Shown here piece after piece: positions 2,063-19,585 of a stretch of DNA of 64,000 bases. Source of the stretch: a virus; IMG/VR virus record IMGVR_UViG_3300037418_000264, positions 4,297 to 68,296 of that record. The stretch is one strand, 5' to 3'. Under the pieces are notes generated by a model that saw only the letters and a program-made list of their open reading frames with translations, searched no databases and was not told the DNA's origin. The first letter of the stretch is position 1; each line of letters begins with the position of its first letter. A program made the translations under genes and the position numbers.

Positions 2063-2305
2063 ATGGAACGTGCGACTGTCGTTGAATACAAGCGTATCCC
2101 GATGTGCCATGATTGTGCACTCTTCTGGCGTGGTGCCAATATGTGTCATGCGTTTGAATTACTTGACGAACGGTTCAATCCGTCTGATGCCGTAGCCAAT
2201 CGTCTCGACGAAGAGCTGTGTGGTCTCGGCGGCAGATATTATATCCCGCGTCCACCGAAGGCTTCGTTCCTATCACGAATTTTGGCGTGGGCTTTTGGAG
2301 GCTAG
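2063..2305 (+). CDS. Cys-rich hypothetical protein with C-terminal amphipathic helix
   Basis: GGGAGG SD; CxxC...C...C; ends KASFLSRILAWAFGG. Confidence 0.65.
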   Translation: MERATVVEYKRIPMCHDCALFWRGANMCHAFELLDERFNPSDAVANRLDEELCGLGGRYYIPRPPKASFLSRILAWAFGG

Positions 2306-2307
2306 TT

Positions 2308-2661
2308 ATGTGGGACATCAAAGTTGGTGACAAAGTAACGCCCGTTCGGAGTTGGACTAAAAGGAGCGAAAGATACGAACACGAAATCTTCCCTTCTTTA
2401 GGCACAGTGTACACTGTTCGTTCCGTGTTCGTCGTTAACGGACTTCCAAGTATTCATTTGGTTGAAATTGTGAACAAACCAGATGTTTACTCGGTCGATG
2501 GTTGCAATCAAGTGTCTGAAGTGTGCTTTATCTTGAAGTACTTCCGCAAGGTCATTTCGAACAAAGGAATGGATGAGTTGACCAAATTTCTCTCCAATCC
2601 TCAGTCCAAAGTGACCAACAACGGCTTCGGCAAGAAAGTCAAGAGGAAAATTAGGGCCTAA
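2308..2661 (+). CDS. hypothetical protein with SH3/KOW-like N-terminus
   Basis: GGAGG SD; starts MWDIKVGDKV. Confidence 0.65.
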   Translation: MWDIKVGDKVTPVRSWTKRSERYEHEIFPSLGTVYTVRSVFVVNGLPSIHLVEIVNKPDVYSVDGCNQVSEVCFILKYFRKVISNKGMDELTKFLSNPQSKVTNNGFGKKVKRKIRA

Positions 2662-5384: not shown

Positions 5385-5651
5385 ATGCGTGCAATGGACA
5401 GAAGAGGGCCTTTCTTGCCGATAGGCCACGTCAACGAGGAAGAAAAGGAAACCACGATGCAGTGCTTGAAGCATATTCCTGCCCGTGAAGCCCATATGCA
5501 GATTGTTCCGGGGCGGATTGTGGACAACGTGTTTGTCTACCCACAGGCTAACGGCAACGTCAACCTGATGATTCCGTCAAGTGACCAGTTCACCAAGAAC
5601 AGTATCTATGAACTCGGAAAGGCACTTCTCCAACTGTCGGAGTTCATGTAG
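5385..5651 (+). CDS. hypothetical protein
   Basis: AAGGAG SD; tightly packed with neighbours. Confidence 0.65.
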   Translation: MRAMDRRGPFLPIGHVNEEEKETTMQCLKHIPAREAHMQIVPGRIVDNVFVYPQANGNVNLMIPSSDQFTKNSIYELGKALLQLSEFM

Positions 5652-7459: not shown

Positions 7460-8155
7460 ATGAAACTGCTCTACGGTGCCGATCCCGAGCTTTTCGTCTA
7501 TGAACGTGGCCGGTATAAGTCGGCGCATGACCTGATACCCGGCACGAAAGAATGTCCTCATCCTGCCTCATATGGTGCCATTCAAGTCGATGGTGTCGCG
7601 GCGGAATTTAACATCTGGCCTGCGTCGAACTGTGATGAATTTGTCCGGAACATTCTAGAAGTCAAGAACTTCCTATCACGCGAAGTCCAGAAAAGGTTGC
7701 CGAATGCCGATTTGGTGGCTGATCCAACAGCAAGGTTCACCCCCGAGTACTTTGACTCTCTACCGTTTGAAACCAAGCTTTTGGGGTGTACCCCTGACTT
7801 TGATGCATACACGGGTGCAGAGAACGAACCGCCAGCAACCGACAAACCCATTAGGACTGGTGGGGGACATATTCATATTGGTTGGACACAAGACGTCGAT
7901 CCTTTTGACCACGAGCATTTCGCCTTGTGCCGCGAGTTGACCAAGCGTTTAGACGATCAACTCTACAATGCGTCTCTAGATTGGGACAGTGACCAAACAC
8001 GTCGAGAACTTTACGGCAAGATGGGTTCTTTTCGTCCGAAGTCATATGGTCTCGAATACCGACCTCTCTCAAATGCTTGGGTCGCTGACGAACGGTTGAT
8101 CGAACGTGTCTTCTATTTAACTGACGGTACCACTCGTCGATTTTTCAATCTTTAA
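7460..8155 (+). CDS. phiEco32-like COOH-NH2 ligase type 2 (glutamine-synthetase-fold amidoligase)
   Basis: GADPELF, QVDGVAAEFNI, GCTPDFDAY, RTGGGHIHIG, RRELYG and RPKSYGLEYRPLSNAW motifs. Confidence 0.88.
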   Translation: MKLLYGADPELFVYERGRYKSAHDLIPGTKECPHPASYGAIQVDGVAAEFNIWPASNCDEFVRNILEVKNFLSREVQKRLPNADLVADPTARFTPEYFDSLPFETKLLGCTPDFDAYTGAENEPPATDKPIRTGGGHIHIGWTQDVDPFDHEHFALCRELTKRLDDQLYNASLDWDSDQTRRELYGKMGSFRPKSYGLEYRPLSNAWVADERLIERVFYLTDGTTRRFFNL

Positions 8156-8187
8156 GAACTGAAATCGACAGAACTAGGAGATTTTTG

Positions 8188-8370
8188 ATGCGTGAGCATG
8201 AATTGAATAACAATTTCTACGACTCGTTTAATCTCAACGAACCTATCGACACCGATTGGGACGACTGGTCGTACGACGACTTCGACTATTGGCATGACCG
8301 GGATGACGACTACGGTGGTTCCTATGAAGAAGAGTACGAGGAAGACCTAGACGAAGAAGAGGACTGGTAA
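8188..8370 (+). CDS. small, extremely acidic protein
   Basis: AGGAG SD; Asp/Glu/aromatic-rich; ends EEEYEEDLDEEEDW. Confidence 0.65.
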   Translation: MREHELNNNFYDSFNLNEPIDTDWDDWSYDDFDYWHDRDDDYGGSYEEEYEEDLDEEEDW

Positions 8371-8585
8371 TGAAGTTTCCGAAAGTCCAACATAAGTTGC
8401 CTCCTTCATTTGAAGAAAAGATCGAGTGGGACAATGAACTCGAATGCCTGCTGTCCGCGCCTGTCGTCCCTTTCGGACAATACCGATACGTCAAGGAACA
8501 GCAGGGACTGTCCCGATACTCCTGTATACGACATATCAAAGAACAACGTGGAGGCGGTGGTTCTGCCGGGTCTGGTCGTGGATAA
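8370..8585 (+). CDS. hypothetical protein
   Basis: TAATG overlap with the upstream gene; also overlaps the next ORF, so uncertain. Confidence 0.4.
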   Translation: MKFPKVQHKLPPSFEEKIEWDNELECLLSAPVVPFGQYRYVKEQQGLSRYSCIRHIKEQRGGGGSAGSGRG

Positions 8586-8862
8586 AACAACTCACCCGGG
8601 TTATGGAGTCTGCTCTTGGCCTTTCAAAGTAGGCACAAAGATTAGGTCTATGTATTGGGATGGATTACATTCTTCGGATTACTATAAAGTTCTTAAATAC
8701 GAGGGCGATCGAGTATTCCTAGAGCAACATGGTGTCGAGTACCTCCAAAACTACGGTAAGAATGCTTTTGGTGACTTGAACGACTGGTACTACAGTTCTC
8801 CATTGGAAAGACAGAAGACCGGCTTCGGAAAGTTCGTAACGAGGATCGAAAAGAATGAATAA
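8578..8862 (+). CDS. GF[AG]K[FW]-tail family protein 1 (start uncertain; frame open from 8410)
   Basis: FKVGTKI near the N-terminus; C-terminus RQKTGFGKFVTRIEKNE. Confidence 0.7.
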   Translation: MDKTTHPGYGVCSWPFKVGTKIRSMYWDGLHSSDYYKVLKYEGDRVFLEQHGVEYLQNYGKNAFGDLNDWYYSSPLERQKTGFGKFVTRIEKNE

Positions 8863-9148
8863 GCTTGTCTATTTCGGACCGTCTGGTCTTGGTCAAGTCA
8901 CAATTCACGAAGGCGACTTTGTAGAGTTCAGTAATGGTATGAAGGGAGTTGCAATTTTCTCTCCACAATATTCTGGTGGCATGCCGATCACCTATCGTTG
9001 GGATGAATACGATCACTATCAGTTGTCTAACCCAGATAGTTGTCATTCTGGTTCAACGACTGGATTAGTTAAACATATTCCTGTGGAGTCAAGAATTCGT
9101 ACCCGTAGGGGCTTTGGCGCGTTTGTTCACCGTATTGAGTCGTCATGA
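8855..9148 (+). CDS. GF[AG]K[FW]-tail family protein 2
   Basis: IHEGDFV; C-terminus RTRRGFGAFVHRIESS. Confidence 0.75.
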   Translation: MNKLVYFGPSGLGQVTIHEGDFVEFSNGMKGVAIFSPQYSGGMPITYRWDEYDHYQLSNPDSCHSGSTTGLVKHIPVESRIRTRRGFGAFVHRIESS

Positions 9149-9411
9149 CATTCAGGGTTGGTGATGTCGTAAGCAGAATTGCAAACTACAGCCATGGTGG
9201 TGTCCATCCGGGGCAAACAGTCACTGTCGAGTGGATTTCTGACAATGGTCGGAATCTTCATTTCGTAGAAGACACCACATTGACGTCCGATGGAAGTCGT
9301 TATCTCCATAGTACACAAAACTACCATCTTGTTTCTAGTCGTAAAGAAAAGAAACTCTCTGGTTTCGGTAAGTTTATCAAGAACTTAGAGTCAAGAAAGG
9401 AAACTCAGTGA
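9145..9411 (+). CDS. GF[AG]K[FW]-tail family protein 3
   Basis: MTFRVGDVV; C-terminus KKLSGFGKFIKNLESRKETQ. Confidence 0.75.
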   Translation: MTFRVGDVVSRIANYSHGGVHPGQTVTVEWISDNGRNLHFVEDTTLTSDGSRYLHSTQNYHLVSSRKEKKLSGFGKFIKNLESRKETQ

Positions 9412-9833
9412 CCTCACTCGTACATCCTGTCTCATGGTGGAAGTCAAAAGAATTGACACAATCCGGTCGAGTGTCTTACGTCCTAGTAAGCAATGTCGCC
9501 GACGGTCTTGTCCATTTCTTTGCCCATGACGCCGGTCATCCAGAGGGGAAGCAAGCCTGTACTCGTCTGTTGAGCAAGTGGCACGAGAGGTACGAAGAGG
9601 TCTCGTTTGCTGAAGTTCCGGAGAATTGGGGACGACGTGCTAGCCCTTATGTTCCAAGAGCAGATCGCTTTAGAAATTATTACAACCCGTTCCTGTACTT
9701 GGAAGAACCTGACTTCGTCACTATCCATTCAACAGACTACGTTGGTTACGGAATGTACCGGCATAAGACCGAGATTCCTCCTAAGAAGAAATCTGGGTTC
9801 GCTAAATTTATCAACAAGGTTGAAGGCAAGTAA
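9408..9833 (+). CDS. GF[AG]K[FW]-tail family protein 4
   Basis: GTGA overlap; C-terminus KKKSGFAKFINKVEGK. Confidence 0.75.
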   Translation: MTSLVHPVSWWKSKELTQSGRVSYVLVSNVADGLVHFFAHDAGHPEGKQACTRLLSKWHERYEEVSFAEVPENWGRRASPYVPRADRFRNYYNPFLYLEEPDFVTIHSTDYVGYGMYRHKTEIPPKKKSGFAKFINKVEGK

Positions 9834-9834
9834 C

Positions 9835-10728
9835 ATGGTTTCTTACATTCTTCGTCGTCGTAAATTGGGTCGTACAAGTGCCCGCGAGATTGCTCGTGGC
9901 AGTAGTCAGGGTATCGTCGTCTATCGTAATGATGGAAGGAAGTATAACCACGTGACGAACAAGTACGAACGTATTCCGGGTGGTTTGCCTCATCAAGTCG
10001 ATTACGTCTTCCGTTGGGGTTGTACTTCCGTCGTCAACGGCAATGGTCAGGTTGTCAACAAGTCGGCTGCTATTTCTGCCGTAGGTGACAAGAGGGCTTT
10101 CCGTAAGATGACTGCCGATGCCGGTCTGGCACCAAAAACTTGGTTGTCTGTCAATGAGGAAGGCATTGTCTATCCAGTTGTTCTTCGTCGGAGTACCCAC
10201 GCACAAGGCCGGAATTTGCACGTATGCAATAACATCCAAGAACTTCGCTCCGCCGCTGCGAGGTACGGAGAAGGCAACTACTATATCTCGGCCTTAATCC
10301 AGAAAGTATCGGAGTATCGTGTGGCTGTCGTGTCGGGACGTGTATGTTGGGTAGCCAAGAAGACTCCATCCAATCCGAATGCCGTTGCTTGGAATGTCGC
10401 ACAAGGTGGTCGGTTTGATAACGTTCCGTGGTCTGATTGGCCTCTGAAGGCCGTCAAGGTTGCCATTCAGGCTTTCAAGATGACGGAACTAGACTTCGGC
10501 GGTGTCGATGTCATGCTGGATGCGCAAGGTAATGTTTTCGTCCTTGAAATCAATTCGGCACCTTCCCAGACTTCCCCGTATCGTCAGTCGTGCTTTACGA
10601 AGTGCTTTGACTACATCGTCCAGTTCGGTAAGGACCACATTCCTCTGACCGAAGAACCCGGTGGTTGGAAGAAGTTCATCCATCCTGCCCTAAGCAATGA
10701 GGCGATCCTTGCCCAATCTGAAGTATAA
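9835..10728 (+). CDS. ATP-grasp ligase (RimK/phiEco32-like)
   Basis: RWG, DK, YPVVLR, EYRVAV, WN..QGG, LDFGGVDV and VLEINSAP motifs; ATG 9835 follows the upstream stop. Confidence 0.88.
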   Translation: MVSYILRRRKLGRTSAREIARGSSQGIVVYRNDGRKYNHVTNKYERIPGGLPHQVDYVFRWGCTSVVNGNGQVVNKSAAISAVGDKRAFRKMTADAGLAPKTWLSVNEEGIVYPVVLRRSTHAQGRNLHVCNNIQELRSAAARYGEGNYYISALIQKVSEYRVAVVSGRVCWVAKKTPSNPNAVAWNVAQGGRFDNVPWSDWPLKAVKVAIQAFKMTELDFGGVDVMLDAQGNVFVLEINSAPSQTSPYRQSCFTKCFDYIVQFGKDHIPLTEEPGGWKKFIHPALSNEAILAQSEV

Positions 10729-10960
10729 AGTCGGGGATAAGTGTAAGTTGAACTGCCGTCCTTTTCTTGGTTACAATCATTCCTGTGGACTGGGAGACGG
10801 GAGCATCGTTACACTTCGCAAACCTAATACGAATAACTTCGGTTGGCTTGTCAACGAATTTCCCACTGTCGATTATTATTTTCTTGAGGAATGGTTGATA
10901 CCACTTGAGAAAACAAAATCCGGGTTCGCGAAGTGGATATCAAGACATGACTCAGTTTAA
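10697..10960 (+). CDS. GF[AG]K[FW]-tail family protein 5
   Basis: YKVGDKC; C-terminus KTKSGFAKWISRHDSV. Confidence 0.72.
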   Translation: MRRSLPNLKYKVGDKCKLNCRPFLGYNHSCGLGDGSIVTLRKPNTNNFGWLVNEFPTVDYYFLEEWLIPLEKTKSGFAKWISRHDSV

Positions 10961-11243
10961 AATAGGAGACCGAGTATCTTGGTCACCTCTACAAGAGTAC
11001 GGCCACGCATTCGGTGATGTCACGATAGAAGGATGTATATACGCAGTCTCTCCAATGTTGTCTTGGGAATGGTGGTTTATTGCGGACACACCACATGATT
11101 CACTGACCCACAACGCTCGCGGTCAGTGCCCAAAAGGAAAGCACTCTAGGTATGTCAAGAGTCGGGATTTGATTTTAATAGGTCCTAAACCCAAGTCTGG
11201 TTTTGCAAAATTTATTGAGAGGATAGAGAGTCCAAATGGCTAA
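10947..11243 (+). CDS. GF[AG]K[FW]-tail family protein 6
   Basis: MTQFKIGDRV; C-terminus KPKSGFAKFIERIESPNG. Confidence 0.75.
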   Translation: MTQFKIGDRVSWSPLQEYGHAFGDVTIEGCIYAVSPMLSWEWWFIADTPHDSLTHNARGQCPKGKHSRYVKSRDLILIGPKPKSGFAKFIERIESPNG

Positions 11244-11472
11244 AGACAATTTCGGTAAGTGGCAGGGTGGAGACAATTTCGTCTATTCCCCACAGTGGGC
11301 ATCCGGTCAGTCGCGAGACGGTTCGCAGGGTAAGAAGAAGTATGGTGACGCCGCTATGCGTAAGCGTACCCGCTTCAACCCCAATCCCACGGCTTGTTCA
11401 CATCCGGGTTGCCAGATCAAGGCCCGCAGCAAGCGTGACAAAGAAAACTATCTGAGGAGTAAGTCGGTATGA
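11236..11472 (+). CDS. small basic hypothetical protein
   Basis: Overlaps the upstream stop; Lys/Arg-rich; CSHPGC. Confidence 0.6.
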   Translation: MAKDNFGKWQGGDNFVYSPQWASGQSRDGSQGKKKYGDAAMRKRTRFNPNPTACSHPGCQIKARSKRDKENYLRSKSV

Positions 11473-11617
11473 GTGGAATGTACGTAATCGGTGGTGCAAT
11501 AGGGGGTGCTTGTACCGTCGCCATGATTACCCAACCCGGAGTTGGTTTTGGTGGTGGTCTCCTATTGGCGGCAGTGGTGGTCTTTATTTCGGCAATCATG
11601 GAATATAAAAAATAATC

Positions 11618-13312
11618 ATGACTGAGTTTGTTTTTAAATTTGAAACCAAAGAATTTTCAGTAGAAAAGACTTTTGATCCACGTTACAATCCTATTCTTAG
11701 GATGAACAATGATACTTCCGAAGATCGTAAGAAGATTGTCAAGGCAGTCTTTGAGGATAACGGAGAAGAAATTCTCTCGAATTGGGCCAAGCAATCTGTT
11801 CATGCTGGCCGGTGGATCGAGACTTTTAAATCCCGTTTTCCAAAGGAGAACTGGTACGGTCTCGCCCTATTCAAAGAGTTCTATTTGAACGCCTCAGACG
11901 TCCAGTTCTCTCAGAGGGCTGGTGGTACGTATTCGTGTCGGAAGTACGCCTCTCTGTCTGAACAATTTGTGACAGAGTTTTTGAATGTACTTTCTTCGGA
12001 CTATTCCTTTGCCAAGGCCCTGTCTCCTGTCTCGGGTGTCTTTGGAAGTTTCATAAACTTCGCAACAGGTAAAAACCCAATTACAGGCAGAAAACCTACT
12101 TATCTGTCTGACCTTCTTGAAGCAACAAAAGTAGGGGTTGACTATTCTATTGAAGCTACGACTATTGAAAACAGTCACGGTGTAACTGAACTATCAACCA
12201 TGAGGATTAAAATGCCACTTCTCTACGCCAATCGCAAGGAACTGTACAAGAAGTTTGAGTACAGCACCAATATCATTGATACTGTCGGTTGGTCCCGCCC
12301 GTCTGAAATCGTATCTGAGAGTCTATTTGGTGTCGAACTTGAAGTCTCAACAGACTACTCGGAAGCCAATATCATCGACGCCTTCCCTGAAATCTTCGCC
12401 ATCGTGAAGAAGGACAGCACTATTACCGGAACGAAGTCAAATATGGGTGAGATTGTCACCATTCCTGCCACCCTGCGTACTCATCGCAAGATGTGGATGA
12501 ACTTCTTCAAGAACCTGAACGAAGACATGTTCGATTGTCTGGACAAACATAATAACGGTATGCACGTCCATATCGACCGTGAGACGTTTGACAAAGATAC
12601 GATGCACCTGAAGAAGTTCTGCTGGTTCTTTGCCAATCCGGCTAACCACAAGTTCCTTCAGGACATTTCTGAACGTTCGCAGGACAGCATCAACAAGTTC
12701 GCCAAGTTCGTCTCTGCTCCGAAGATTTCTAAGACCGTCCCCGGTAAAACTGCCGCTGGTCTGTCCTTCGTCAACTCGGACCGTGCACTCCGTCAGTCGG
12801 ACAAACATACCGTCGTCAATCTCGGTAAGTCGGCAACCGTCGAAGTCCGTCTCTTTAAGGGTATCGTCAGCTATGCGAGTATCGTCAAAAACCTCGAATT
12901 CGTTGACTCTCTAGTCGAATTCAGCCGTTGGAACAATTATAAGGACATGAATTTATCTTCTTACATCAAGTGGCTCAAGAAGCTCCATACCACGAAATAC
13001 CGTGTTCTCAAGCTTATCATTGAGGAAATGGACCTCGATGCCATCCTGTTGGAAGCCGAAATCGAAAAGGTCATCAAGGGTTCGGGTCTTAGCACTTCGT
13101 CTATTGCTCTCGAATTGAACAAGATGAACCTGAACAACAAGTTCAGCAAGATTGCTATCAAGTTGTTCAACGGTACCTATGAGGCTTCCGGCAAGACTTT
13201 GGAAAAGGATGATCGTCCGGGTGCACAGTTTGTCGTCGTCGCAAAGGGTACTCGCTTTGCTAAGTACAACGACATCGCTTTTGCGATGCAGAACGGTACG
13301 TATCGCCGTTGA
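11618..13312 (+). CDS. putative amidoligase (Amidoligase_2-type COOH-NH2 ligase) with N-terminal extension
   Basis: FGVELEV, KKDSTI, GEIVTIP, GMHVHI, VNL...TVEVRLFKG motifs. Confidence 0.85.
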   Translation: MTEFVFKFETKEFSVEKTFDPRYNPILRMNNDTSEDRKKIVKAVFEDNGEEILSNWAKQSVHAGRWIETFKSRFPKENWYGLALFKEFYLNASDVQFSQRAGGTYSCRKYASLSEQFVTEFLNVLSSDYSFAKALSPVSGVFGSFINFATGKNPITGRKPTYLSDLLEATKVGVDYSIEATTIENSHGVTELSTMRIKMPLLYANRKELYKKFEYSTNIIDTVGWSRPSEIVSESLFGVELEVSTDYSEANIIDAFPEIFAIVKKDSTITGTKSNMGEIVTIPATLRTHRKMWMNFFKNLNEDMFDCLDKHNNGMHVHIDRETFDKDTMHLKKFCWFFANPANHKFLQDISERSQDSINKFAKFVSAPKISKTVPGKTAAGLSFVNSDRALRQSDKHTVVNLGKSATVEVRLFKGIVSYASIVKNLEFVDSLVEFSRWNNYKDMNLSSYIKWLKKLHTTKYRVLKLIIEEMDLDAILLEAEIEKVIKGSGLSTSSIALELNKMNLNNKFSKIAIKLFNGTYEASGKTLEKDDRPGAQFVVVAKGTRFAKYNDIAFAMQNGTYRR

Positions 13313-13432
13313 GAGTAAGTCTTGTTTTCTTTTCTGGCCAATTTTGGAGGAAATTAGAGCCTCCGTGGATTAAAGGCCGTAGACCAACTATTACCTACCA
13401 ACCCGTAAACTTGCCTTAGAAGGAACGAGATT

Positions 13433-14536
13433 TTGTGTCAATTAATTTGGAAGCCTGCGGGTTTTACAATCCCACGAAACCTGATCGAGAGTACCTGTAT
13501 CGTCAATCCTGACGGCTTCGGCCTGATGTATGGTACGGGATCGGTCGAGAATGGTGAACTTCAGACGTTCAAACTGTACAACGGTGACAACGACCCTGAC
13601 GTTCTATTCCCGATACTAGAAGGTCTACACGACATCAATGCTTTCATCCACTTCCGTTACAGGACCAAGGGTGTGATCAACGAGGCGTCGTGTCATCCGT
13701 TTGTCTGTTATGACAACAATGATCGTAAAGTCGCTTTGATGCATAACGGAACTCTGACGGGATATGGTACGACTGACAAAGTAGATAGTGAAGAGTTTGC
13801 TGAAAAGCTTGTAGGCCCTCTTTATAATCGCTTCCTTCTGTCTGGTGTTCGTCAACCGTTGTCTGACGGTTTCTTCCAAGAGATTGTTCAGAAGTTCATC
13901 GGATCGGAAAGTAAGATTGCTGTGGCCGACAATACCGGTGACTCTGTGATCTTCAACTATGCGAAGGGTGATGTCCGCAAGAACAAAATTGATCGTATAG
14001 ACACAGAGACGGGCGAGGCATTTGAGCAGGAAATTGAGTGGTGGGTGTCAAATACCTATTCATTCAATACTGGACACAGGAAGTCATATAACTACGGGAA
14101 CAGCCACGACTATTCTCAGTATCGTCACGGTAGCCAGAGTGGGGGTACCTCAACAGGAGGTCCCCCCCCTTTTCGTCAGAATGGGACAAGTTCATCAACG
14201 ACTACTCAGACAGAGACGACTATTCAGACTGGTGGTGGGAACAAGTCTACGGACAAGACGACTGGAAAGACCCCAGAGACAAGCGCTTCGGCCACACCGG
14301 AGACTAAGAAAAAGGAGACTGGTAAGGTGCCTCAAAGAACTATGGTCGCGAGCTACTGGCAAGATGTTCTTGGTCTCGATGATATTGATGAGCTTCGTGC
14401 GATGACGAGAGAAAATATCTCTGAGCTTGTCGATCTAGAACCAGAGAATGCCAAGTTGTTTATCAATGACCTATTGATTGAGTTGTTTGAGAACACACCT
14501 TGGGATGACGAAGTTGATGAGGATGAAGACGCATGA
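13433..14536 (+). CDS. class II (Ntn) glutamine amidotransferase with low-complexity C-terminal extension
   Basis: N-terminal Met-Cys (TTG start); NPDGFG, HFRYRTKG, CHPF, MHNG and DSE motifs. Confidence 0.88.
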   Translation: MCQLIWKPAGFTIPRNLIESTCIVNPDGFGLMYGTGSVENGELQTFKLYNGDNDPDVLFPILEGLHDINAFIHFRYRTKGVINEASCHPFVCYDNNDRKVALMHNGTLTGYGTTDKVDSEEFAEKLVGPLYNRFLLSGVRQPLSDGFFQEIVQKFIGSESKIAVADNTGDSVIFNYAKGDVRKNKIDRIDTETGEAFEQEIEWWVSNTYSFNTGHRKSYNYGNSHDYSQYRHGSQSGGTSTGGPPPFRQNGTSSSTTTQTETTIQTGGGNKSTDKTTGKTPETSASATPETKKKETGKVPQRTMVASYWQDVLGLDDIDELRAMTRENISELVDLEPENAKLFINDLLIELFENTPWDDEVDEDEDA

Positions 14537-14841
14537 GCGAGCCTAAAAAAGTAAATCGAGAATTCGCGTGTAAGTACCAAACACTAACCGAAGTCTTAGC
14601 TCATGCTGAGTGGGTCATTGAAAACAATCCCGGTATGACGCTTTCTGACTTCTGTTTTGACACATACCATCCAGACCCATACGAAGACTACGAGTATCCT
14701 TGTATGTCATACGAGACGCCTGAAACTCCCCCTGAAAAACAAAAGCGTCTAGCAGATGAAGCTAAAACTAAGGCAACTCGTGAAGAGTGGGAACGCAAAC
14801 AGTTTGAACAGTTGAAGGCGAAGTATGGCACAGATAACTAG
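14533..14841 (+). CDS. hypothetical protein
   Basis: ATGA overlap; charged helical C-terminus. Confidence 0.65.
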   Translation: MSEPKKVNREFACKYQTLTEVLAHAEWVIENNPGMTLSDFCFDTYHPDPYEDYEYPCMSYETPETPPEKQKRLADEAKTKATREEWERKQFEQLKAKYGTDN

Positions 14842-15430
14842 GCAGGGTGAGTTGGGTTTGTTCTTTTCGTTTGACTTCAAGAAAGTCTTGCAAGATCAGG
14901 CGAAATGGACAAGCGATATTCCTTATTTAAACCAATTTGAAAACCACTACGTCTTTGTCTACGGTACACTGAAACGTGGAATGAGACGGTCTGAAATCCT
15001 GACCAAGAACCAGCAGTGTAAGTTCTGTGGTGTGGCTGTCACAGAGTTCAATGAACTCGATCTTCTATTATTCGTCGATGAGAGTTCGGCGGAGGGTCAC
15101 TTCCCTGTCCTATTTGATCACGTATCGAAGTCAAGGAATGCAAAAGTCAAAGGAGAACTTTGGCTTGTTCCTACTGAGGTTCTTCTACAGCTCGACAAGA
15201 TCGAAGGCAACGGATATATGTTCGAACGTGAGTGGACATCTGTCTGGGTAGGCACAGAGAAGGTACATGCATTCTGTTACTATGGGATCAAGGAATTTTG
15301 GCGTTTCCAGAATTTGATTGACCTTCCTATCATGAAGTCAAATGGCAAGCAATACCACTTCTACCACGGAATGCAAGCAGACAAGTTGGCTTCGATGTGG
15401 AAGAATACAGGATCATTAGAGGCACATTAG
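14825..15430 (+). CDS. gamma-glutamylcyclotransferase (AIG2/GGCT-like)
   Basis: VFVYGTLKRG, VKGELW and LDKIEG motifs. Confidence 0.88.
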   Translation: MAQITRQGELGLFFSFDFKKVLQDQAKWTSDIPYLNQFENHYVFVYGTLKRGMRRSEILTKNQQCKFCGVAVTEFNELDLLLFVDESSAEGHFPVLFDHVSKSRNAKVKGELWLVPTEVLLQLDKIEGNGYMFEREWTSVWVGTEKVHAFCYYGIKEFWRFQNLIDLPIMKSNGKQYHFYHGMQADKLASMWKNTGSLEAH

Positions 15431-15438
15431 GGGTCTAA

Positions 15439-15720
15439 ATGGAAGACCATAACAAGTACATTAAAGTAGGTGACTTTGTCAAGGACCAGACATATGCCTG
15501 GGTCGATTGGTATAGAGTTCATAGTATTGGTAGTGATGACCTCCATGGCAAATACATTCTGATTGAGGTAATTCCTGATCATCCATCTGAGACTAGGTAT
15601 TACTTTAACGTCGAACCAGAACGTCATTTCTTGATCAAGGGTTTCACGGCAGGGAAGCGCGAAAGACCTAAGAGAGGGTTCGGTAAGTGGATTTCTAAGA
15701 TTGAGGGTGAAGATGCCTGA
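15439..15720 (+). CDS. GF[AG]K[FW]-tail family protein 7
   Basis: IKVGDFV; C-terminus RPKRGFGKWISKIEGEDA. Confidence 0.75.
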   Translation: MEDHNKYIKVGDFVKDQTYAWVDWYRVHSIGSDDLHGKYILIEVIPDHPSETRYYFNVEPERHFLIKGFTAGKRERPKRGFGKWISKIEGEDA

Positions 15721-15997
15721 ACCATATTTTGACGTAGGCGACGAAGTCGAAGTACTCCAGAACCATTCGGGTTGGTTCTGGTCAGGGATAGTTGCAGGGA
15801 CGAGAGGTACTGTTCGTGAAGCCAATATTCGTGATGGTGATGCTGAGTACCACATTGACTTCACCATAGGTGGAGACACTTGGGGACAGTACTACGAACA
15901 CCGTCTTGGAATTGTCAAGAGGGCCAAACCACTAGAAAAGAAGCTTTCTGGATTTGCTCGTTTTATCAAAAAGATTGACAACGAAGCGAAAACGTGA
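15713..15997 (+). CDS. GF[AG]K[FW]-tail family protein 8
   Basis: FDVGDEV; C-terminus KKLSGFARFIKKIDNEAKT. Confidence 0.75.
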   Translation: MPEPYFDVGDEVEVLQNHSGWFWSGIVAGTRGTVREANIRDGDAEYHIDFTIGGDTWGQYYEHRLGIVKRAKPLEKKLSGFARFIKKIDNEAKT

Positions 15998-16012
15998 GAT
16001 AATAGATATCCT

Positions 16013-16258
16013 ATGACACATAAATACAAGATTATCGAAATTGAGACAGAACCGAAAGTCTCGGTTTTCAAACTGTATGTGAAGTCCGAAACACCATTTT
16101 GGTGCAGATTTATTGTTTCGATGCCTGCTTGGGAGTTCGCTGGTAACTTTCCTTCAAAGTCTGCTGCCGTGGAGCAAATGAGGATCATTATGAAATACCC
16201 ACGTGAGGTCAATTCCTCGTACTACTACGACACTGGTGTAGAAGACAATATGTGGTAG
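16013..16258 (+). CDS. hypothetical protein
   Basis: ORF in operon orientation. Confidence 0.6.
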   Translation: MTHKYKIIEIETEPKVSVFKLYVKSETPFWCRFIVSMPAWEFAGNFPSKSAAVEQMRIIMKYPREVNSSYYYDTGVEDNMW

Positions 16259-16260
16259 GC

Positions 16261-16360
16261 CCCTACTTATACCTAGGTATAATACTTAAGGTTACTTAGG
16301 TAAGACTTAGTTAACAATAAAAATAGTTAGGTATTATACCTAGGTATTACCTTAGGTATT
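16261..16360. repeat. AT-rich island with palindromes and TAGGTA repeats (candidate origin or regulatory site)
   Basis: 16-bp palindrome TTATACCTAGGTATAA (16267-16282); TTATACCTAGGTAT repeated at 16334; TAGGTA at 16274, 16297, 16328, 16341 and 16353. Confidence 0.65.
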
Positions 16361-16362
16361 AT

Positions 16363-16391
16363 ATTATAACGTCATTTTATGTGTTTGTCAA
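16363..16391 (-). promoter_or_regulatory. perfect sigma70 promoter, antisense to the surrounding genes
   Basis: On the minus strand: TTGACA (16391-16386), 17 bp, TATAAT (16368-16363). Confidence 0.75.
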
Positions 16392-16691
16392 GTGCTTTTT
16401 AAGCACATATCGCCGATAAATCGGCAGAGAAAGATTTTTAGTGTGAGTGCAATTAATTTTAAATTTGATAACGAACCTACGTCTTATATCGAAGACGATT
16501 TTATTGATTATGAATATAACTCAGATAGTAACCTTCGATGCACAGTCTGTAATTGTGTGTCTTCTGCATCTATTTCTGATGATGGCTGGAACGTCACGGG
16601 AAACCGTATGGTGCGGGACAAACGTGACGAAACAAGGATTATCTGTTCTGGGTGCCTCGACGATATCAACAGTTCGTTGGGAGAATTTTGA
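16392..16691 (+). CDS. putative zinc-ribbon protein (start uncertain)
   Basis: CTVC...CSGC pair. Confidence 0.45.
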   Translation: MLFKHISPINRQRKIFSVSAINFKFDNEPTSYIEDDFIDYEYNSDSNLRCTVCNCVSSASISDDGWNVTGNRMVRDKRDETRIICSGCLDDINSSLGEF

Positions 16692-16885
16692 TGTATACCC
16701 TTAAAGCATTTGCCTATGGTGCATCTTGGTTATTGGGAATAATTGCATTGGTTAGTCTATTGATCACAGCTTTTGCTTTCGCGCCAATGTGGTTCCTTTT
16801 TGTAGATGTAGCCTTCGTCTTTATTGTGTTCTCATTGGTAATAGGTTTTGAACACTATTCGGACTACGACAGCCACGGTACATGA
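16691..16885 (+). CDS. small membrane protein
   Basis: TGATG overlap; two hydrophobic helices. Confidence 0.55.
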   Translation: MYTLKAFAYGASWLLGIIALVSLLITAFAFAPMWFLFVDVAFVFIVFSLVIGFEHYSDYDSHGT

Positions 16886-18483
16886 GTAAATTTGCAGAGA
16901 CGGGTCTTCCCTGTCCTTGCGGAGCGTCGTCAGATGCCTATTCGATAGATCATGATGGTGACGGTTTTTGTTTCGGACAGTGTGGGGGCAGATATTTTAA
17001 GAATAAAGAGGAAGATGAGATAATTTTGTCAGAAGAAGAAGTCCTTGAAAAGGAACTGACGCCGAAGGGCAAAGAGACATATGGTTTTCAAGAAAATTAT
17101 CGTGGGATATACAAACGGACACAAGAGTTTTACGGTGTTCACACAAAGTTCATCGACGGCACTCCTTTCTCACTGGCGTATGTTTACCCCAACGAGTCGC
17201 TTAAAGTACGTATTCTACCCAAGAAATTTTATGCCACTGGTCCTATAGGTGAAGCCCACCTTTTTGGTGAAAACCTATTCTCTCCGGGTTCGTATGACTC
17301 TGTGACCATCGTAGAGGGCGAAGACGACGCCCTGAGCGCGTTCCAGATGCTTTGGAGCAGGAATGCTGTCGTCTCGGTTAAAAACGCTTCTACGGCCCTA
17401 GGAGACGTCAAAGCGCGAAGGGAGTATTTGAATGCGTTTAAGAAAATCATCCTCTGTCTGGACAACGACAAAGCAGGGCAAGAAGCGACCCGTCTTATTA
17501 CCAACTCGGGTTTATTTGACTACGAAAAAGTCTACCGTGTTACACTCAGCCGCCATAAAGACGCCCATGCTTATCTCGAAGCCGGGGAAGTCGAGGACTT
17601 TATTCGTGCATGGGATACGGCTAAACGCTATACCCCGGATGCAGTCATCAACTCTTTCGAAGATATTGAAGAGGCTCTTAAAGCAAAGAGCGATGGACCG
17701 ATAGGCTCATGGCCGTTTGCCGAACTAAATGACTGCCTCATAGGTCTCCACAAGTCTGAATTTATCCTGATCAAGGGATTAGAGAAGATCGGTAAGACGG
17801 AGGTCTGTCGTGCTATTGTTCATGAGTTTCTGCGTAATAGTCCTGACATCAACATTGCGACTATTTTCCTTGAAGAGTCTACAAGTACCACTATCAAAGG
17901 GGTTGCGACCTATGAACTCGAAACACCATGTGCCCTTCAACAATCCGGGGTGTCCGACGAAGATATCCTTAATGGATACAAGAAAGCACTCGGGGGTAAC
18001 TCGTCCAGACTGTACATCCACACGCACTTCTCGACAGAGGACGAGGGAGAGTTAATTGACAACATTCGTTTCTTGGTTACTGTGGCTGGCTGTAAACTTG
18101 TCCTTCTGGATAATCTTACCATGCTCACTACGGGCAGAGAAGACGAGGACGAACGACTTAGGATTGATCGAATTATCCATCGTCTCCGTGATCTTGTTAA
18201 CGAGCTTGATTTCTGTCTTGTTCTCGTTGCCCACGTTAACGACAACGGTCAGACACGCGGTTCTCGGTTGCCTGACAAGTTGGCTAACACGATAGTCCAT
18301 CTAGAACGTAATAAGATGGCTGCCAATGTCCAAGAACGTAATTCTCTGAAGTTCTTTATCGAGGGTGCCCGTGCACAAGGGACTAAGACTGGTCCTGCTG
18401 GTTTTGCATTCTTTGATCCTATTACCTTCAAACTCCGTGATGTTAAACCCGAAGACGAGATTATTCTTCCAGAGGTAGACTGA
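16882..18483 (+). CDS. T7 gp4-like primase-helicase
   Basis: N-terminal zinc finger (CPC..SSDA...C...C), TOPRIM motifs VEGEDDA and LDNDKAG, Walker A GLEKIGKT, LLDNL, AH and RGS. Confidence 0.92.
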   Translation: MSKFAETGLPCPCGASSDAYSIDHDGDGFCFGQCGGRYFKNKEEDEIILSEEEVLEKELTPKGKETYGFQENYRGIYKRTQEFYGVHTKFIDGTPFSLAYVYPNESLKVRILPKKFYATGPIGEAHLFGENLFSPGSYDSVTIVEGEDDALSAFQMLWSRNAVVSVKNASTALGDVKARREYLNAFKKIILCLDNDKAGQEATRLITNSGLFDYEKVYRVTLSRHKDAHAYLEAGEVEDFIRAWDTAKRYTPDAVINSFEDIEEALKAKSDGPIGSWPFAELNDCLIGLHKSEFILIKGLEKIGKTEVCRAIVHEFLRNSPDINIATIFLEESTSTTIKGVATYELETPCALQQSGVSDEDILNGYKKALGGNSSRLYIHTHFSTEDEGELIDNIRFLVTVAGCKLVLLDNLTMLTTGREDEDERLRIDRIIHRLRDLVNELDFCLVLVAHVNDNGQTRGSRLPDKLANTIVHLERNKMAANVQERNSLKFFIEGARAQGTKTGPAGFAFFDPITFKLRDVKPEDEIILPEVD

Positions 18484-18731
18484 TGTCTTTCTATACTAAC
18501 CATTCCAACGGCCTTCCTATTAAAGAGGGTGATTTAGTAGAAAGAATTGATAAGGGTGTTTTGTCTCCTATAGGTTTTAGGACAAGAGTTTATTCCGCTC
18601 ATAACAGATTTAGCATAACCCATCACACAGGTCTCGAAGACATGTATATTGCAGACTACTGGAACTTTATTAGTAGGTACGAGAGGGAAAAATCCCGATT
18701 TGGTAAGTTCTTGGAGAAACACCAACTATGA
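18483..18731 (+). CDS. GF[AG]K[FW]-tail family protein 9
   Basis: IKEGDLV; C-terminus REKSRFGKFLEKHQL. Confidence 0.7.
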   Translation: MSFYTNHSNGLPIKEGDLVERIDKGVLSPIGFRTRVYSAHNRFSITHHTGLEDMYIADYWNFISRYEREKSRFGKFLEKHQL

Positions 18732-18737
18732 AAGTCA

Positions 18738-19004
18738 TTGGTGACTGATATGATCTATCGCGATGGTCAAGAAGTACGGAATGGTGACACGTGGAGAACG
18801 TATGCCAATGAACAGTATACGTACACGGCGATTGATGAGGGGTTTAGGTTTGTATGGCGGTGTATCCAAGTGCCGACGTCTTATGGAACTATGGAACCCT
18901 CTGCGTGTTCTAATGCCTATATTTTAATTCGTCGTAAAGAGTCCCCAAAGTCTGGTTTCGGTAAGTTTATTAAACGTATTGAAGGTTCAAATGCCAAAAT
19001 TTGA
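18738..19004 (+). CDS. GF[AG]K[FW]-tail family protein 10
   Basis: VRNGDTW; C-terminus SPKSGFGKFIKRIEGSNAKI. Confidence 0.72.
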   Translation: MVTDMIYRDGQEVRNGDTWRTYANEQYTYTAIDEGFRFVWRCIQVPTSYGTMEPSACSNAYILIRRKESPKSGFGKFIKRIEGSNAKI

Positions 19005-19317
19005 AGTAGGTGATCGCGTACGCATCGTGGCGTCTTATGAAAGTTCATCAAACGATGAAGGCACGGTTACTTCAATTGAGTATTGGGCCGAGGACGATGA
19101 TGTCTCCGAATACGTAGTTACTTATGACGTCCCTCGTAATAATCCTTATTGGGCACCACAGGACTCGGACGAAGAGATAATCTCTGACTGGACAGAACCA
19201 CAATACCACTACGAAGGTTATTATACCGACGGTGAGCTCGAACTAATAAGTCGTCAGAGAGTGGCCCGTAAAAAGACGGGTTTCAGTGCATGGATTAGAA
19301 AACAAGAAAATGGTTGA
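18991..19317 (+). CDS. GF[AG]K[FW]-tail family protein 11
   Basis: MPKFEVGDRV; C-terminus RKKTGFSAWIRKQENG. Confidence 0.75.
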   Translation: MPKFEVGDRVRIVASYESSSNDEGTVTSIEYWAEDDDVSEYVVTYDVPRNNPYWAPQDSDEEIISDWTEPQYHYEGYYTDGELELISRQRVARKKTGFSAWIRKQENG

Positions 19318-19585
19318 CCTTTACCAATCAATAGGAAAAAGGGTTTATTTAATTAACTCTTATAGTGGTGTCGCAGATAAAGTACCCGGCATTCTTGTCG
19401 AAGCAACTGTTTTCCGGGCAGATGAGCATACTCCCGGATTACATGATGGTGGTGGTCGAGGCCCTAAAGGTTACTATTGGTTTGTCACATCTGACATGAT
19501 CATTCTAAGAGAGTCTTTGGTCAGAAAAACTACGGGCTTTGCTAAGTTCATTAAGCGCATCGAACAAAAACAGTTAAATGTTTGA
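19310..19585 (+). CDS. GF[AG]K[FW]-tail family protein 12
   Basis: SIGKRV; C-terminus RKTTGFAKFIKRIEQKQLNV. Confidence 0.75.
   Translation: MVDLYQSIGKRVYLINSYSGVADKVPGILVEATVFRADEHTPGLHDGGGRGPKGYYWFVTSDMIILRESLVRKTTGFAKFIKRIEQKQLNV

Follow-up and report, generated by a model that had tools for sequence, protein, structure and literature searches.

A 64-kb stretch of DNA from an uncultured soil phage, referred to here as the window (64,000 nucleotides, bases 4297-68296 of the 68,296-bp virus record IMGVR_UViG_3300037418_000264), encodes twelve small proteins that carry a shared peptide, the tag, near their C-termini. The record has direct terminal repeats and is rated complete. Early and replication genes occupy the + strand of the window up to approximately 32 kb, and virion genes are on the - strand. 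The tagged proteins span 82-141 residues, and their genes form four blocks on the + strand, interleaved with the genes of a ligase module and then with those for a primase-helicase and a polymerase. The core of the tag is a basic stretch followed by G-F-[AG]-K-[FW]-I, and tails of this form are termed class A below. An earlier note on this DNA, made from the sequence alone, had listed the twelve open reading frames (ORFs) with their places and endings, all of which are present in the window. It had also reported an N-terminal motif, hydrophobic-x-[VIEN]-G-[DTK]-x-hydrophobic, in eleven of the proteins, and this motif is indeed found in 11 of the 12.

The first block contains four genes. Protein 1 (8578-8862; 94 residues from a GTG at 8578) has the N-terminal motif FKVGTKI and ends RQKTGFGKFVTRIEKNE. 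It is followed by protein 2 (8855-9148; 97 residues), which ends RTRRGFGAFVHRIESS, and protein 3 (9145-9411; 88 residues), which ends KKLSGFGKFIKNLESRKETQ and is modelled as an SH3-like barrel with the tag as its C-terminal helix (residues 74-86). Protein 4 (9408-9833; 141 residues, GTG start), which ends KKKSGFAKFINKVEGK, is the only member without the N-terminal motif. The second block comprises protein 5 (10697-10960; 87 residues; KTKSGFAKWISRHDSV) and protein 6 (10947-11243; KPKSGFAKFIERIESPNG), and the third comprises protein 7 (15439-15720; 93 residues; RPKRGFGKWISKIEGEDA) and protein 8 (15713-15997; KKLSGFARFIKKIDNEAKT). The fourth block again contains four genes: protein 9 (18483-18731; 82 residues; REKSRFGKFLEKHQL), protein 10 (18738-19004; 88 residues from a TTG at 18738; SPKSGFGKFIKRIEGSNAKI), protein 11 (18991-19317; RKKTGFSAWIRKQENG), and protein 12 (19310-19585; RKTTGFAKFIKRIEQKQLNV). 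Four of the ORFs had been listed with TTG or GTG starts; their true starts are more likely to be ATG codons inside the preceding tag, at 10947 (protein 6, reading frame open from 10905), 15713 (protein 8, open from 15701), 18991, and 19310. Protein 10 may likewise start at an ATG at 18750. Since several of these ATG codons overlap the tail of the preceding gene, the genes within blocks appear to be translationally coupled.

The enzymes around the blocks are also encoded on the + strand. A COOH-NH2 ligase type 2 (7460-8155; Pfam PF14395, 28.9 bits, cut-off 25) lies upstream of the first block, and a RimK/LysX-like ATP-grasp ligase (9835-10728) is situated between blocks 1 and 2. Its Pfam score for RimK (PF08443, 36.6 bits, cut-off 21) places it in that family by sequence. 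Between blocks 2 and 3 are a long-form Amidoligase_2 of 564 residues (11618-13312; PF12224, 21.3 bits, just below the cut-off of 22), a class II glutamine amidotransferase-like protein (13433-14536; weak GATase Pfam matches below cut-off), and an AIG2/GGACT-like gamma-glutamyl cyclotransferase (GGCT; 14825-15430; PF06094, 50.2 bits). A primase-helicase with Toprim and DnaB_C domains (16882-18483) follows block 3, and block 4 begins at its stop codon.

The tag is far more frequent than chance would allow. The pattern [GR]F[AGS].[FW][ILV] has exactly 12 matches in the six-frame translation of the window, and all 12 are on the + strand, 5-10 residues ahead of a stop. In 30 mononucleotide shuffles, the same pattern occurs on average 1.5 times (maximum 4), with a mean of 0.83 matches within 10 residues of a stop. 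These counts confirm the earlier observation. A motif-blind detector, which compares the last 22 residues of each protein and calls for 6 identities in an ungapped stretch of 8, places 11 of the 12 proteins in one family and misses the member ending GFSAWIRKQE. This family has 14 members, three of which are chance or diverged links, while the largest family in two shuffles has three members. A 5-of-7 setting was dropped, as it produced giant families in shuffled DNA as well.

A looser tag pattern, applied to the whole 68,296-bp genome, revealed no further convincing member. Two ORFs are possible diverged members: one of 147 residues (window 2218-2661) that ends NNGFGKKVKRKIRA and has a barrel profile E of 1.1e-3, and one of 71 residues, upstream of the window (genome 1457-1672), that ends FHPSCFAKYISERC.

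Conservation of this kind could, in principle, be a by-product of a function at the DNA or RNA level, such as a ribosome-binding site, a coupling element, or a recombination junction, or it could be maintained by gene conversion. Many of the downstream genes start within or just after a tail, and in one related phage two tags carry a 42-nt insertion that is 85% identical between them, so exchange between tags does happen. However, synonymous sites in the tags are randomised. Among 441 same-residue codon pairs between tags, 39.7% use the same codon, against 42.4% expected from the codon usage of the phage, which bears out the earlier claim that synonymous variation points to selection on the peptide. 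Averaged over pairs of tags, identity across the 14 residues is 48% in the protein and just 53% in the DNA while the peptide pattern holds. In addition, 15-30 nt or more separate the conserved core from the stop downstream of it, and the last member has no overlapping downstream gene. Because synonymous codons are randomised, selection acts on the tag peptide and not on its DNA. The tag is therefore conserved at the peptide level; it is neither a DNA or RNA element nor kept alike by recent gene conversion. A by-product of DNA-level function is already largely refuted by the codon test and is scarcely credible. Within the peptide, the G and F are nearly invariant among class A tags, and conservation stops sharply at an E/D, after which the residues are variable.

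The bodies that carry the tag are highly divergent. When the tails are removed, no pair of the 12 proteins is detected by BLASTP at E < 1e-3, in agreement with the earlier impression that the middles cannot be aligned. Protein 3, the one member of the 12 that was modelled, has enough relatives for a model (predicted local distance difference test score, pLDDT, 79.8). The model has four strands by DSSP, against the five of the small barrel fold, followed by a helix at residues 74-86 that corresponds exactly to the tag. The barrel resembles PsaE, the Spt5 KOW domain, L24, NdhS, and Tudor domains at VIA Z scores of 5-7.2, although a Z below 8 can reflect a common arrangement, and a Foldseek search with the model returned no match at E <= 1e-3. 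A barrel profile built from 32 single-domain relatives with their tails cut recovers four of the 12 at E < 0.01 among 648 frames (ORFs 9145, 10697, 18979, and 10905), including protein 5 at 6e-15 and protein 11 at 7e-4. For the other eight, the N-terminal motif is what suggests an SH3-like fold. The SH3/KOW/Tudor-like fold proposed earlier is thus supported, at modest scores, for the modelled protein, and profile membership at E < 0.01 covers four of the 12, protein 3 included, and not the remainder.

Outside the arrays, the barrel domain is common. When 1.84 billion proteins were searched with a profile of the protein 3 subfamily, 450 representatives matched at E <= 1e-3, and many of them have 2-25 tandem copies and no tail. 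The domain is found in P0009, P0011, P0016, P0020, and others, with up to 25 tandem copies (proteins of 1824 and 2448 residues). The proteins that were scanned have only weak matches to SH3_15, NHase_beta_C, NifZ, and SH3_13, and the domain has no Pfam model of its own. Since the domain is common without the tail, we regard the tail as an add-on to a body that is an SH3-like domain, unnamed but widespread in phages. Pfam and PHROGs offer nothing credible for any of the 12 tagged proteins. The ESM Atlas returned unnamed viral clusters at 0.89-0.90, with DUF4314 and an SH3 family as leads only. A sequence search of the PDB with the family profile produced chance antibody matches, which were rejected.

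The phage itself has few known relatives. A DNA search with the window revealed no close relative among 50,697 phage records, and the closest cultured DNA polymerases, at most 42% identical, belong to Roseobacter and Lentibacter podophages. Near-identical DNA is present in rhizosphere and soil metagenomes; all matching sequencing runs are DNA, and no RNA dataset is among them. Four of these runs may come from the source sample itself. The earlier note had proposed gauging the size of the family with a profile of the tails. Searched against 5.8 billion proteins, a profile of the 12 has 8 matches, all from the same phage clade (contigs of approximately 52-68 kb). The strict class A DNA pattern occurs, among viral contigs, only in the contig of locus L004. 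Its 48 occurrences in prokaryote genomes were rejected as chance or unrelated, as none is a small ORF with a basic lead-in.

Loci of related phages were retrieved mainly through the ATP-grasp gene, and their comparison provides the main new result: related phages put different shared tails on the same kind of protein, with 12-17 tagged carriers per genome. Class A tails are found in close relatives, including L004, which has 14, and L009-L012, where some are shortened to G-F-G-K-W-I-S-x-H. A more distant relative, L020, has a diverged class A form. Class B tails occur in L005, L016, L017, and L021, with K-P-L-E-D-W-[ML], K-S-L-E-D-Y-L, or N-L-D-x-[FY]-[ML] at the extreme C-terminus. They are also found in L043, a 64.6-kb viral contig that was seeded from a class B protein of the large profile search (P0088) and not from the enzyme. 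L043 has 12 class B tails of the form [IV]-T-S-L-E-E-Y-M, some of which are on bodies that lack the barrel motif. A strict class B pattern is limited to the contig of L005 and 11 places that resemble chance. Additional proteins with class A tails are P0061, P0062, P0079, P0094, P0116, P0119, and P0146, of which P0061 has no relative in cultured phages or viral contigs. Class C was found by seeding on the COOH-NH2 ligase, in a cultured Rhizobium phage, RHph_N3_19 (68,656 bp; host Rhizobium phaseoli). Here, 16 annotated 'hypothetical proteins' with barrel-like N-termini share tails of the form [FY]-x-Y-[DN]-(P)-x-Q-x-G-D-[TR]-[ED]-[ED]-D-I.

The tails are exchangeable on a common body. One of the class B proteins of L005 has recognisably the same barrel as a class A protein from L009 (BLASTP E 8.6e-5), and in their alignment the two tails substitute for each other directly after the last barrel strand. 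The earlier description of variable domains with a common label is therefore upheld in part, as far as the tag is a modular peptide, conserved as such, appended to a barrel as a predicted helix, swapped between lineages, and present on non-barrel bodies.

Some of the tails have unusual local structure. In L004, two tags (L004:9476-9590 and L004:19579-19690) contain an in-frame 42-nt insertion, the copies of which are approximately 85% identical. The insertion includes a hairpin (GGCACC-N3-GGTGCC), is flanked by an 11-nt direct repeat, and duplicates the sequence R-V-E...K-R-I-E. The tag tolerates this insertion, which resembles a small mobile or converted element. In L020, two successive tag-like peptides in different frames (SGLCKFLNNVGE, then KGFAKFIRAIE) are located just 5' of the ATP-grasp gene (L020:1011-1113), and may be the remnant of a lost tagged gene. 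The window also has an 88-residue ORF (5385-5651) with a class B-like ending, L-S-E-F-M. It is a single-copy gene whose L004 orthologue ends alike, and the ending may be due to chance.

The interchange of tails bears directly on the suggestion, made in the earlier note, that the tag targets the inner membrane. In the membrane-targeting sequences of MinD and FtsA, a basic patch precedes an amphipathic helix that contains aromatic residues. The class A tag has both features: it is a predicted helix with a basic patch ahead of G-F, its hydrophobic moment of 0.31-0.66 and net charge of +2 to +4 are those of an amphipathic cationic helix, and 7 of the 12 tags exceed the moment of 95% of their own shuffles. 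It differs, however, in that it is not at the extreme C-terminus, as 5-10 variable residues follow it. The helix is also short (approximately 13 residues), and G-F is kept much more strictly than a lipid-binding face requires. Moreover, homologues in related phages carry short acidic tails (LEDWM, SLEEYM, GDTEEDI) in the same position, and these cannot bind membranes. Hence, while the basic, amphipathic character of the tag fits, the proposal that the tail holds small proteins at the membrane in the manner of MinD or FtsA is weakened by its acidic replacements, and we regard it as unlikely.

The genomic context of the tails is maintained between distantly related phages. In the loci examined, every array found sits among ligase-module enzymes. 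Shared-tail arrays are present in 9 of 13 judgeable ATP-grasp-seeded contigs of at least 3 kb (L004/L008, L005, L009, L010, L011, L012, L016, L017, and L020; L014 was not counted). In the class B phage L005, the enzymes are those of the window, with a peptidase C26 type amidotransferase in addition. In L043, class B tails surround GGACT, ATP-grasp, amidotransferase, COOH-NH2 ligase, and amidoligase genes, and in RHph_N3_19, class C tails are placed among genes annotated as GGCT, peptidase C26, amidotransferases, amidoligase, and ATP-grasp.

The form of the amidoligase also varies with the tail. The long Amidoligase_2 goes with class A tails, with 564 residues in the window, 562 in L011/L012, and 478 in L020, and a short form of 280 residues is found in L005 and L043. 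The long form can be aligned in L020 (E 1e-24) and barely in L005 (E 0.45). A 189-residue protein of L005 was considered as the missing N-terminal half of the long amidoligase, but was rejected, as it has no similarity to it (E 4.3).

Several small genes accompany the module. Directly 3' of the COOH-NH2 ligase is a gene for an extremely acidic, aromatic-rich protein of 61 residues (8185-8370) that ends EEEDW and has no Pfam match. A similar gene occupies the same place in L009, and the product might mimic DNA or interact with basic tails as their partner. The next gene (8370-8585) encodes a 71-residue protein (MKFPKVQHKLP...) with a glycine-rich tail, RGGGGSAGSGRG, also without a Pfam match, which is kept in L009 and L011 directly ahead of the first tagged gene. 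A 77-residue ORF (16652-16885) that overlaps the start of the primase-helicase has a long hydrophobic stretch and is likely to encode a membrane protein; several similar ORFs are found at that place in L012.

A further possibility is that the tail is a shared turnover signal, a degron or protease-adaptor handle, that would time the removal of early proteins. This would be compatible with a C-terminal position, with a tail that is common to many early or middle genes and specific to a lineage, and with conservation that ends sharply at E/D, leaving variable residues thereafter. However, no protease gene was identified beside the arrays, and the link to the ligase module would be left unexplained. 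A turnover signal is consequently very unlikely.

Within the module, the ATP-grasp ligase is the best-conserved neighbour of the arrays, with 41-95% identity across loci. Its best NCBIfam matches are rimK_fam, MptN, and LysX, followed by graspetide maturases, all well below their cut-offs. The AlphaFold2 model of the enzyme (pLDDT 84.5) has LysX/ArgX and RimK chains as its ten best Foldseek matches (E 3e-14 to 4e-13; template modelling scores 0.63-0.70), and the top entries include LysX/ArgX bound to LysW (5k2m, 3vpb) and RimK, also in complex with ribosomal protein S6 (RpsF; 5zk6). Both LysX/ArgX and RimK are enzymes that work on the C-terminal tails of small proteins. Judged by its model, the nearest structural neighbours of the phage enzyme are ligases of protein tails.

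Tag class also follows the ATP-grasp clade and its indels. Class B ATP-grasps form a clade (support 86/94). Class A enzymes have a common insertion at approximately residues 33-50, class B enzymes have a different one, and enzymes from untagged loci have neither. In the class C phage, the only ATP-grasp is a distant one, 36% identical over 97 residues. A predicted complex between the ATP-grasp and tagged protein 3 scored 0.00 against a mark of 0.32, which speaks neither for nor against binding.

The C-terminal tail of the ATP-grasp, which has low model confidence, includes the peptide G-G-W-K-K-F-I-H-P-A-L (residues 276-286; window 10660-10695). Of 12 homologues, 11 keep this peptide almost unchanged, in class A, class B, and untagged phages alike, and it resembles the class A core in the form G-[FW]-x-K-[FW]-I. 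The peptide may act as a built-in pseudo-handle, or the resemblance may be coincidental.

Taken together, these observations lead us to favour, tentatively and at somewhat less than even odds, the reading in which the tails are handles read by the ligase module of the phage. Each small, mostly SH3-like protein would carry a portable C-terminal docking peptide, in which G-F-[AG]-K-[FW]-I would form the hydrophobic face of a short helix after a basic stretch. The reader would be phage-encoded and part of the peptide-ligase module, with the ATP-grasp at 9835-10728 as the first candidate. The tail would bring each tagged protein to the enzyme, as the LysW tail does for LysX or the microviridin leader for its ATP-grasp ligase, and the tagged proteins would be substrates, carriers, or adaptors of the ligase set. 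The ligase set as reader, the covalent change that would follow, and the nature of that change are what we infer. Among the options raised in the earlier note, recognition by the flanking ligases gains most from the interleaving of tagged genes with the enzymes, the agreement of tag class with ATP-grasp clade and indels, and the structural proximity of LysX and RimK.

A number of observations weigh against this reading. Co-occurrence is biased, as the enzyme served as the seed for most of the tagged loci. The agreement between tag class and ATP-grasp could be plain shared ancestry. The enzymes evidently do not need tagged proteins, because L013, L015, L018, and L019 (partial contigs), the Zobellviridae phage T2S2, Pantoea phage TacPo2 (first 30 kb), and the Kuravirus PAS59 (first 40 kb) have the module but no tail family. 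The NCBIfam scores of the ATP-grasp are far below the cut-offs: for rimK_fam, it has 49.6 bits against 143.4, and is for this reason a distant member of the RimK family. It also falls short of the graspetide maturases, with 22.9 bits for GRASP_SAV_5884 (cut-off 350) and 18.9 bits for MvdC (cut-off 425). In being basic and set back from the C-terminus, class A tags differ from the tails of S6 and LysW, which are acidic and terminal. There is no universal acceptor residue, and some tails of relatives, such as GFGKWISKHV, have no acidic residue after the helix. Finally, half of the tagged genes in the window flank the primase-helicase and polymerase and not a ligase.

This last point, in particular, raises the possibility that the tail docks all of the small proteins on another hub, either a host protein or the phage replisome (polymerase or primase-helicase). 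The tag would then differ between lineages because the hub differs. Short C-terminal peptides have this role elsewhere: in T7, gp2.5 and gp4 dock on the phage polymerase through acidic tails at their C-termini, and the tail of the single-stranded DNA-binding protein SSB recruits partners. As in T7, the tails described here are short, shared C-terminal peptides that would serve one partner, and those of classes B and C are similarly acidic with a hydrophobic last residue. The largest tag blocks of L005 and L043 abut the primase-helicase end of the module, and the near-invariant G and F of class A suggest a specific pocket. The existence of the module without arrays also fits a partner elsewhere. 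Yet class A tails are basic and not terminal, which rules out a type of site shared with classes B and C. Unlike the T7 tails, those described here are found on 12-17 carriers per genome and are linked to the ligase module, from which the arrays are never separated in the loci examined. Docking on another hub is accordingly possible, if on the doubtful side.

Returning to the ligase module as reader, a more specific version can be considered, in which a protein-modifying ligase machine would be served by the tagged proteins as a library of adaptors or carriers. Each of the variable barrels might bind a different host or phage target, or carry a growing gamma-glutamyl-linked product. The common tail would recruit, and perhaps switch on, the ATP-grasp and amidoligases at that target. 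Handle and reader would co-evolve, and for that reason lineages would come to have entirely different tails (A, B, and C). The arrangement can be likened to F-box adaptors for a ubiquitin ligase, or to LysW in the lysine pathway. As a complete scheme, it is rather unlikely.

None of this appears to have been described. No family model and no paper with these motifs was found, in keeping with the earlier statement that no description was known, although the 2009 paper on the module was not covered. In the literature searched, which did not extend to supplements, GDTEEDI, GDTEDDI, GFAKFI, GFGKFI, and PLEDWM are absent, and SLEEYM occurs once, in an unrelated human paper. A search on the names of the RHph phages returned nothing on these tagged proteins. 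Passages of two papers on phage ATP-grasp ligases (PMC7824862 and PMC4431377) deal with the enzymes, not with tagged arrays.

The enzymes themselves belong to a known module. The COOH-NH2 ligase (PF14395), Amidoligase_2 (PF12224), ATP-grasp, amidotransferase, and GGCT are co-located in the window, and this enzyme set is identical to the phiEco32-like amidoligase module. The module is present in hundreds of sequenced phages, and relatives of the COOH-NH2 ligase occur in 319 phage records. According to a citing paper, the 2009 work of Iyer et al. that defined the module proposed cell-wall modification (PMC10580990), and this is the sole proposal for its role that could be traced. The scanned stretch of the Kuravirus has no tail family, in contrast to the window. 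The tagged arrays are thus an addition to the module in a group of roughly 65-68-kb phages. Woven through the module, they are concrete candidates for its substrates, carriers, or adaptors, and the cultured carrier RHph_N3_19 makes the question of the tails open to experiment. If the tails are enzyme handles, these phages would possess a protein-tagging or carrier system with interchangeable address peptides. If the tails dock on another hub, they would still make up a new type of portable label, carried by early proteins of phages.

Graspetide systems provide one precedent. There, several precursor genes can lie beside an ATP-grasp ligase, and the precursors combine a conserved helical recognition motif with a variable remainder, as the tagged proteins do. 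The microviridin leader motif PFFARFL is reported to bind the ATP-grasp and to be needed for catalysis (PMC8939145). This motif is similar to F-A-[KR]-F-I, which is present in 4 of the 12 tags (strict core F-A-[KR]-F-[IL]), although a likeness over five residues or fewer is a lead only. The graspetide motif, however, is in an N-terminal leader, while the tag is at the C-terminal end of folded proteins of 80-140 residues. With a C-terminal motif, and with no conserved or repeated core of cross-linkable Thr/Ser/Lys and Asp/Glu seen, the tagged proteins do not have the makings of graspetide precursors.

Further precedents are the amino-group carrier protein LysW with LysX/ArgX, and S6 with RimK. 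In both, a RimK-family ATP-grasp reads the C-terminal tail of a small globular protein, and both enzymes are among the top structural matches here. The C-terminal EDWGE of LysW is read by LysX (PMC10433800), and E-D-W is shared with the class B ending L-E-D-W-[ML] of related phages; this likeness, too, spans five residues or fewer and is a lead only. The differences are nonetheless considerable. At least 12 different proteins are tagged rather than one, and the tag of the window is a basic helix that is not terminal. A zinc ribbon, a terminal Glu, and genes of a lysine or arginine pathway are all absent. With basic tails, variable ends, and barrel-like bodies, the proteins of the window are not LysW-type carriers, which have a zinc ribbon and end in EDWGE. 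A C-terminal handle on a small protein beside a RimK/LysX-type ligase is hence an arrangement of a known kind, and the novelty of the phage system is its many-membered library, with handles that are specific to a lineage and interchangeable between lineages.

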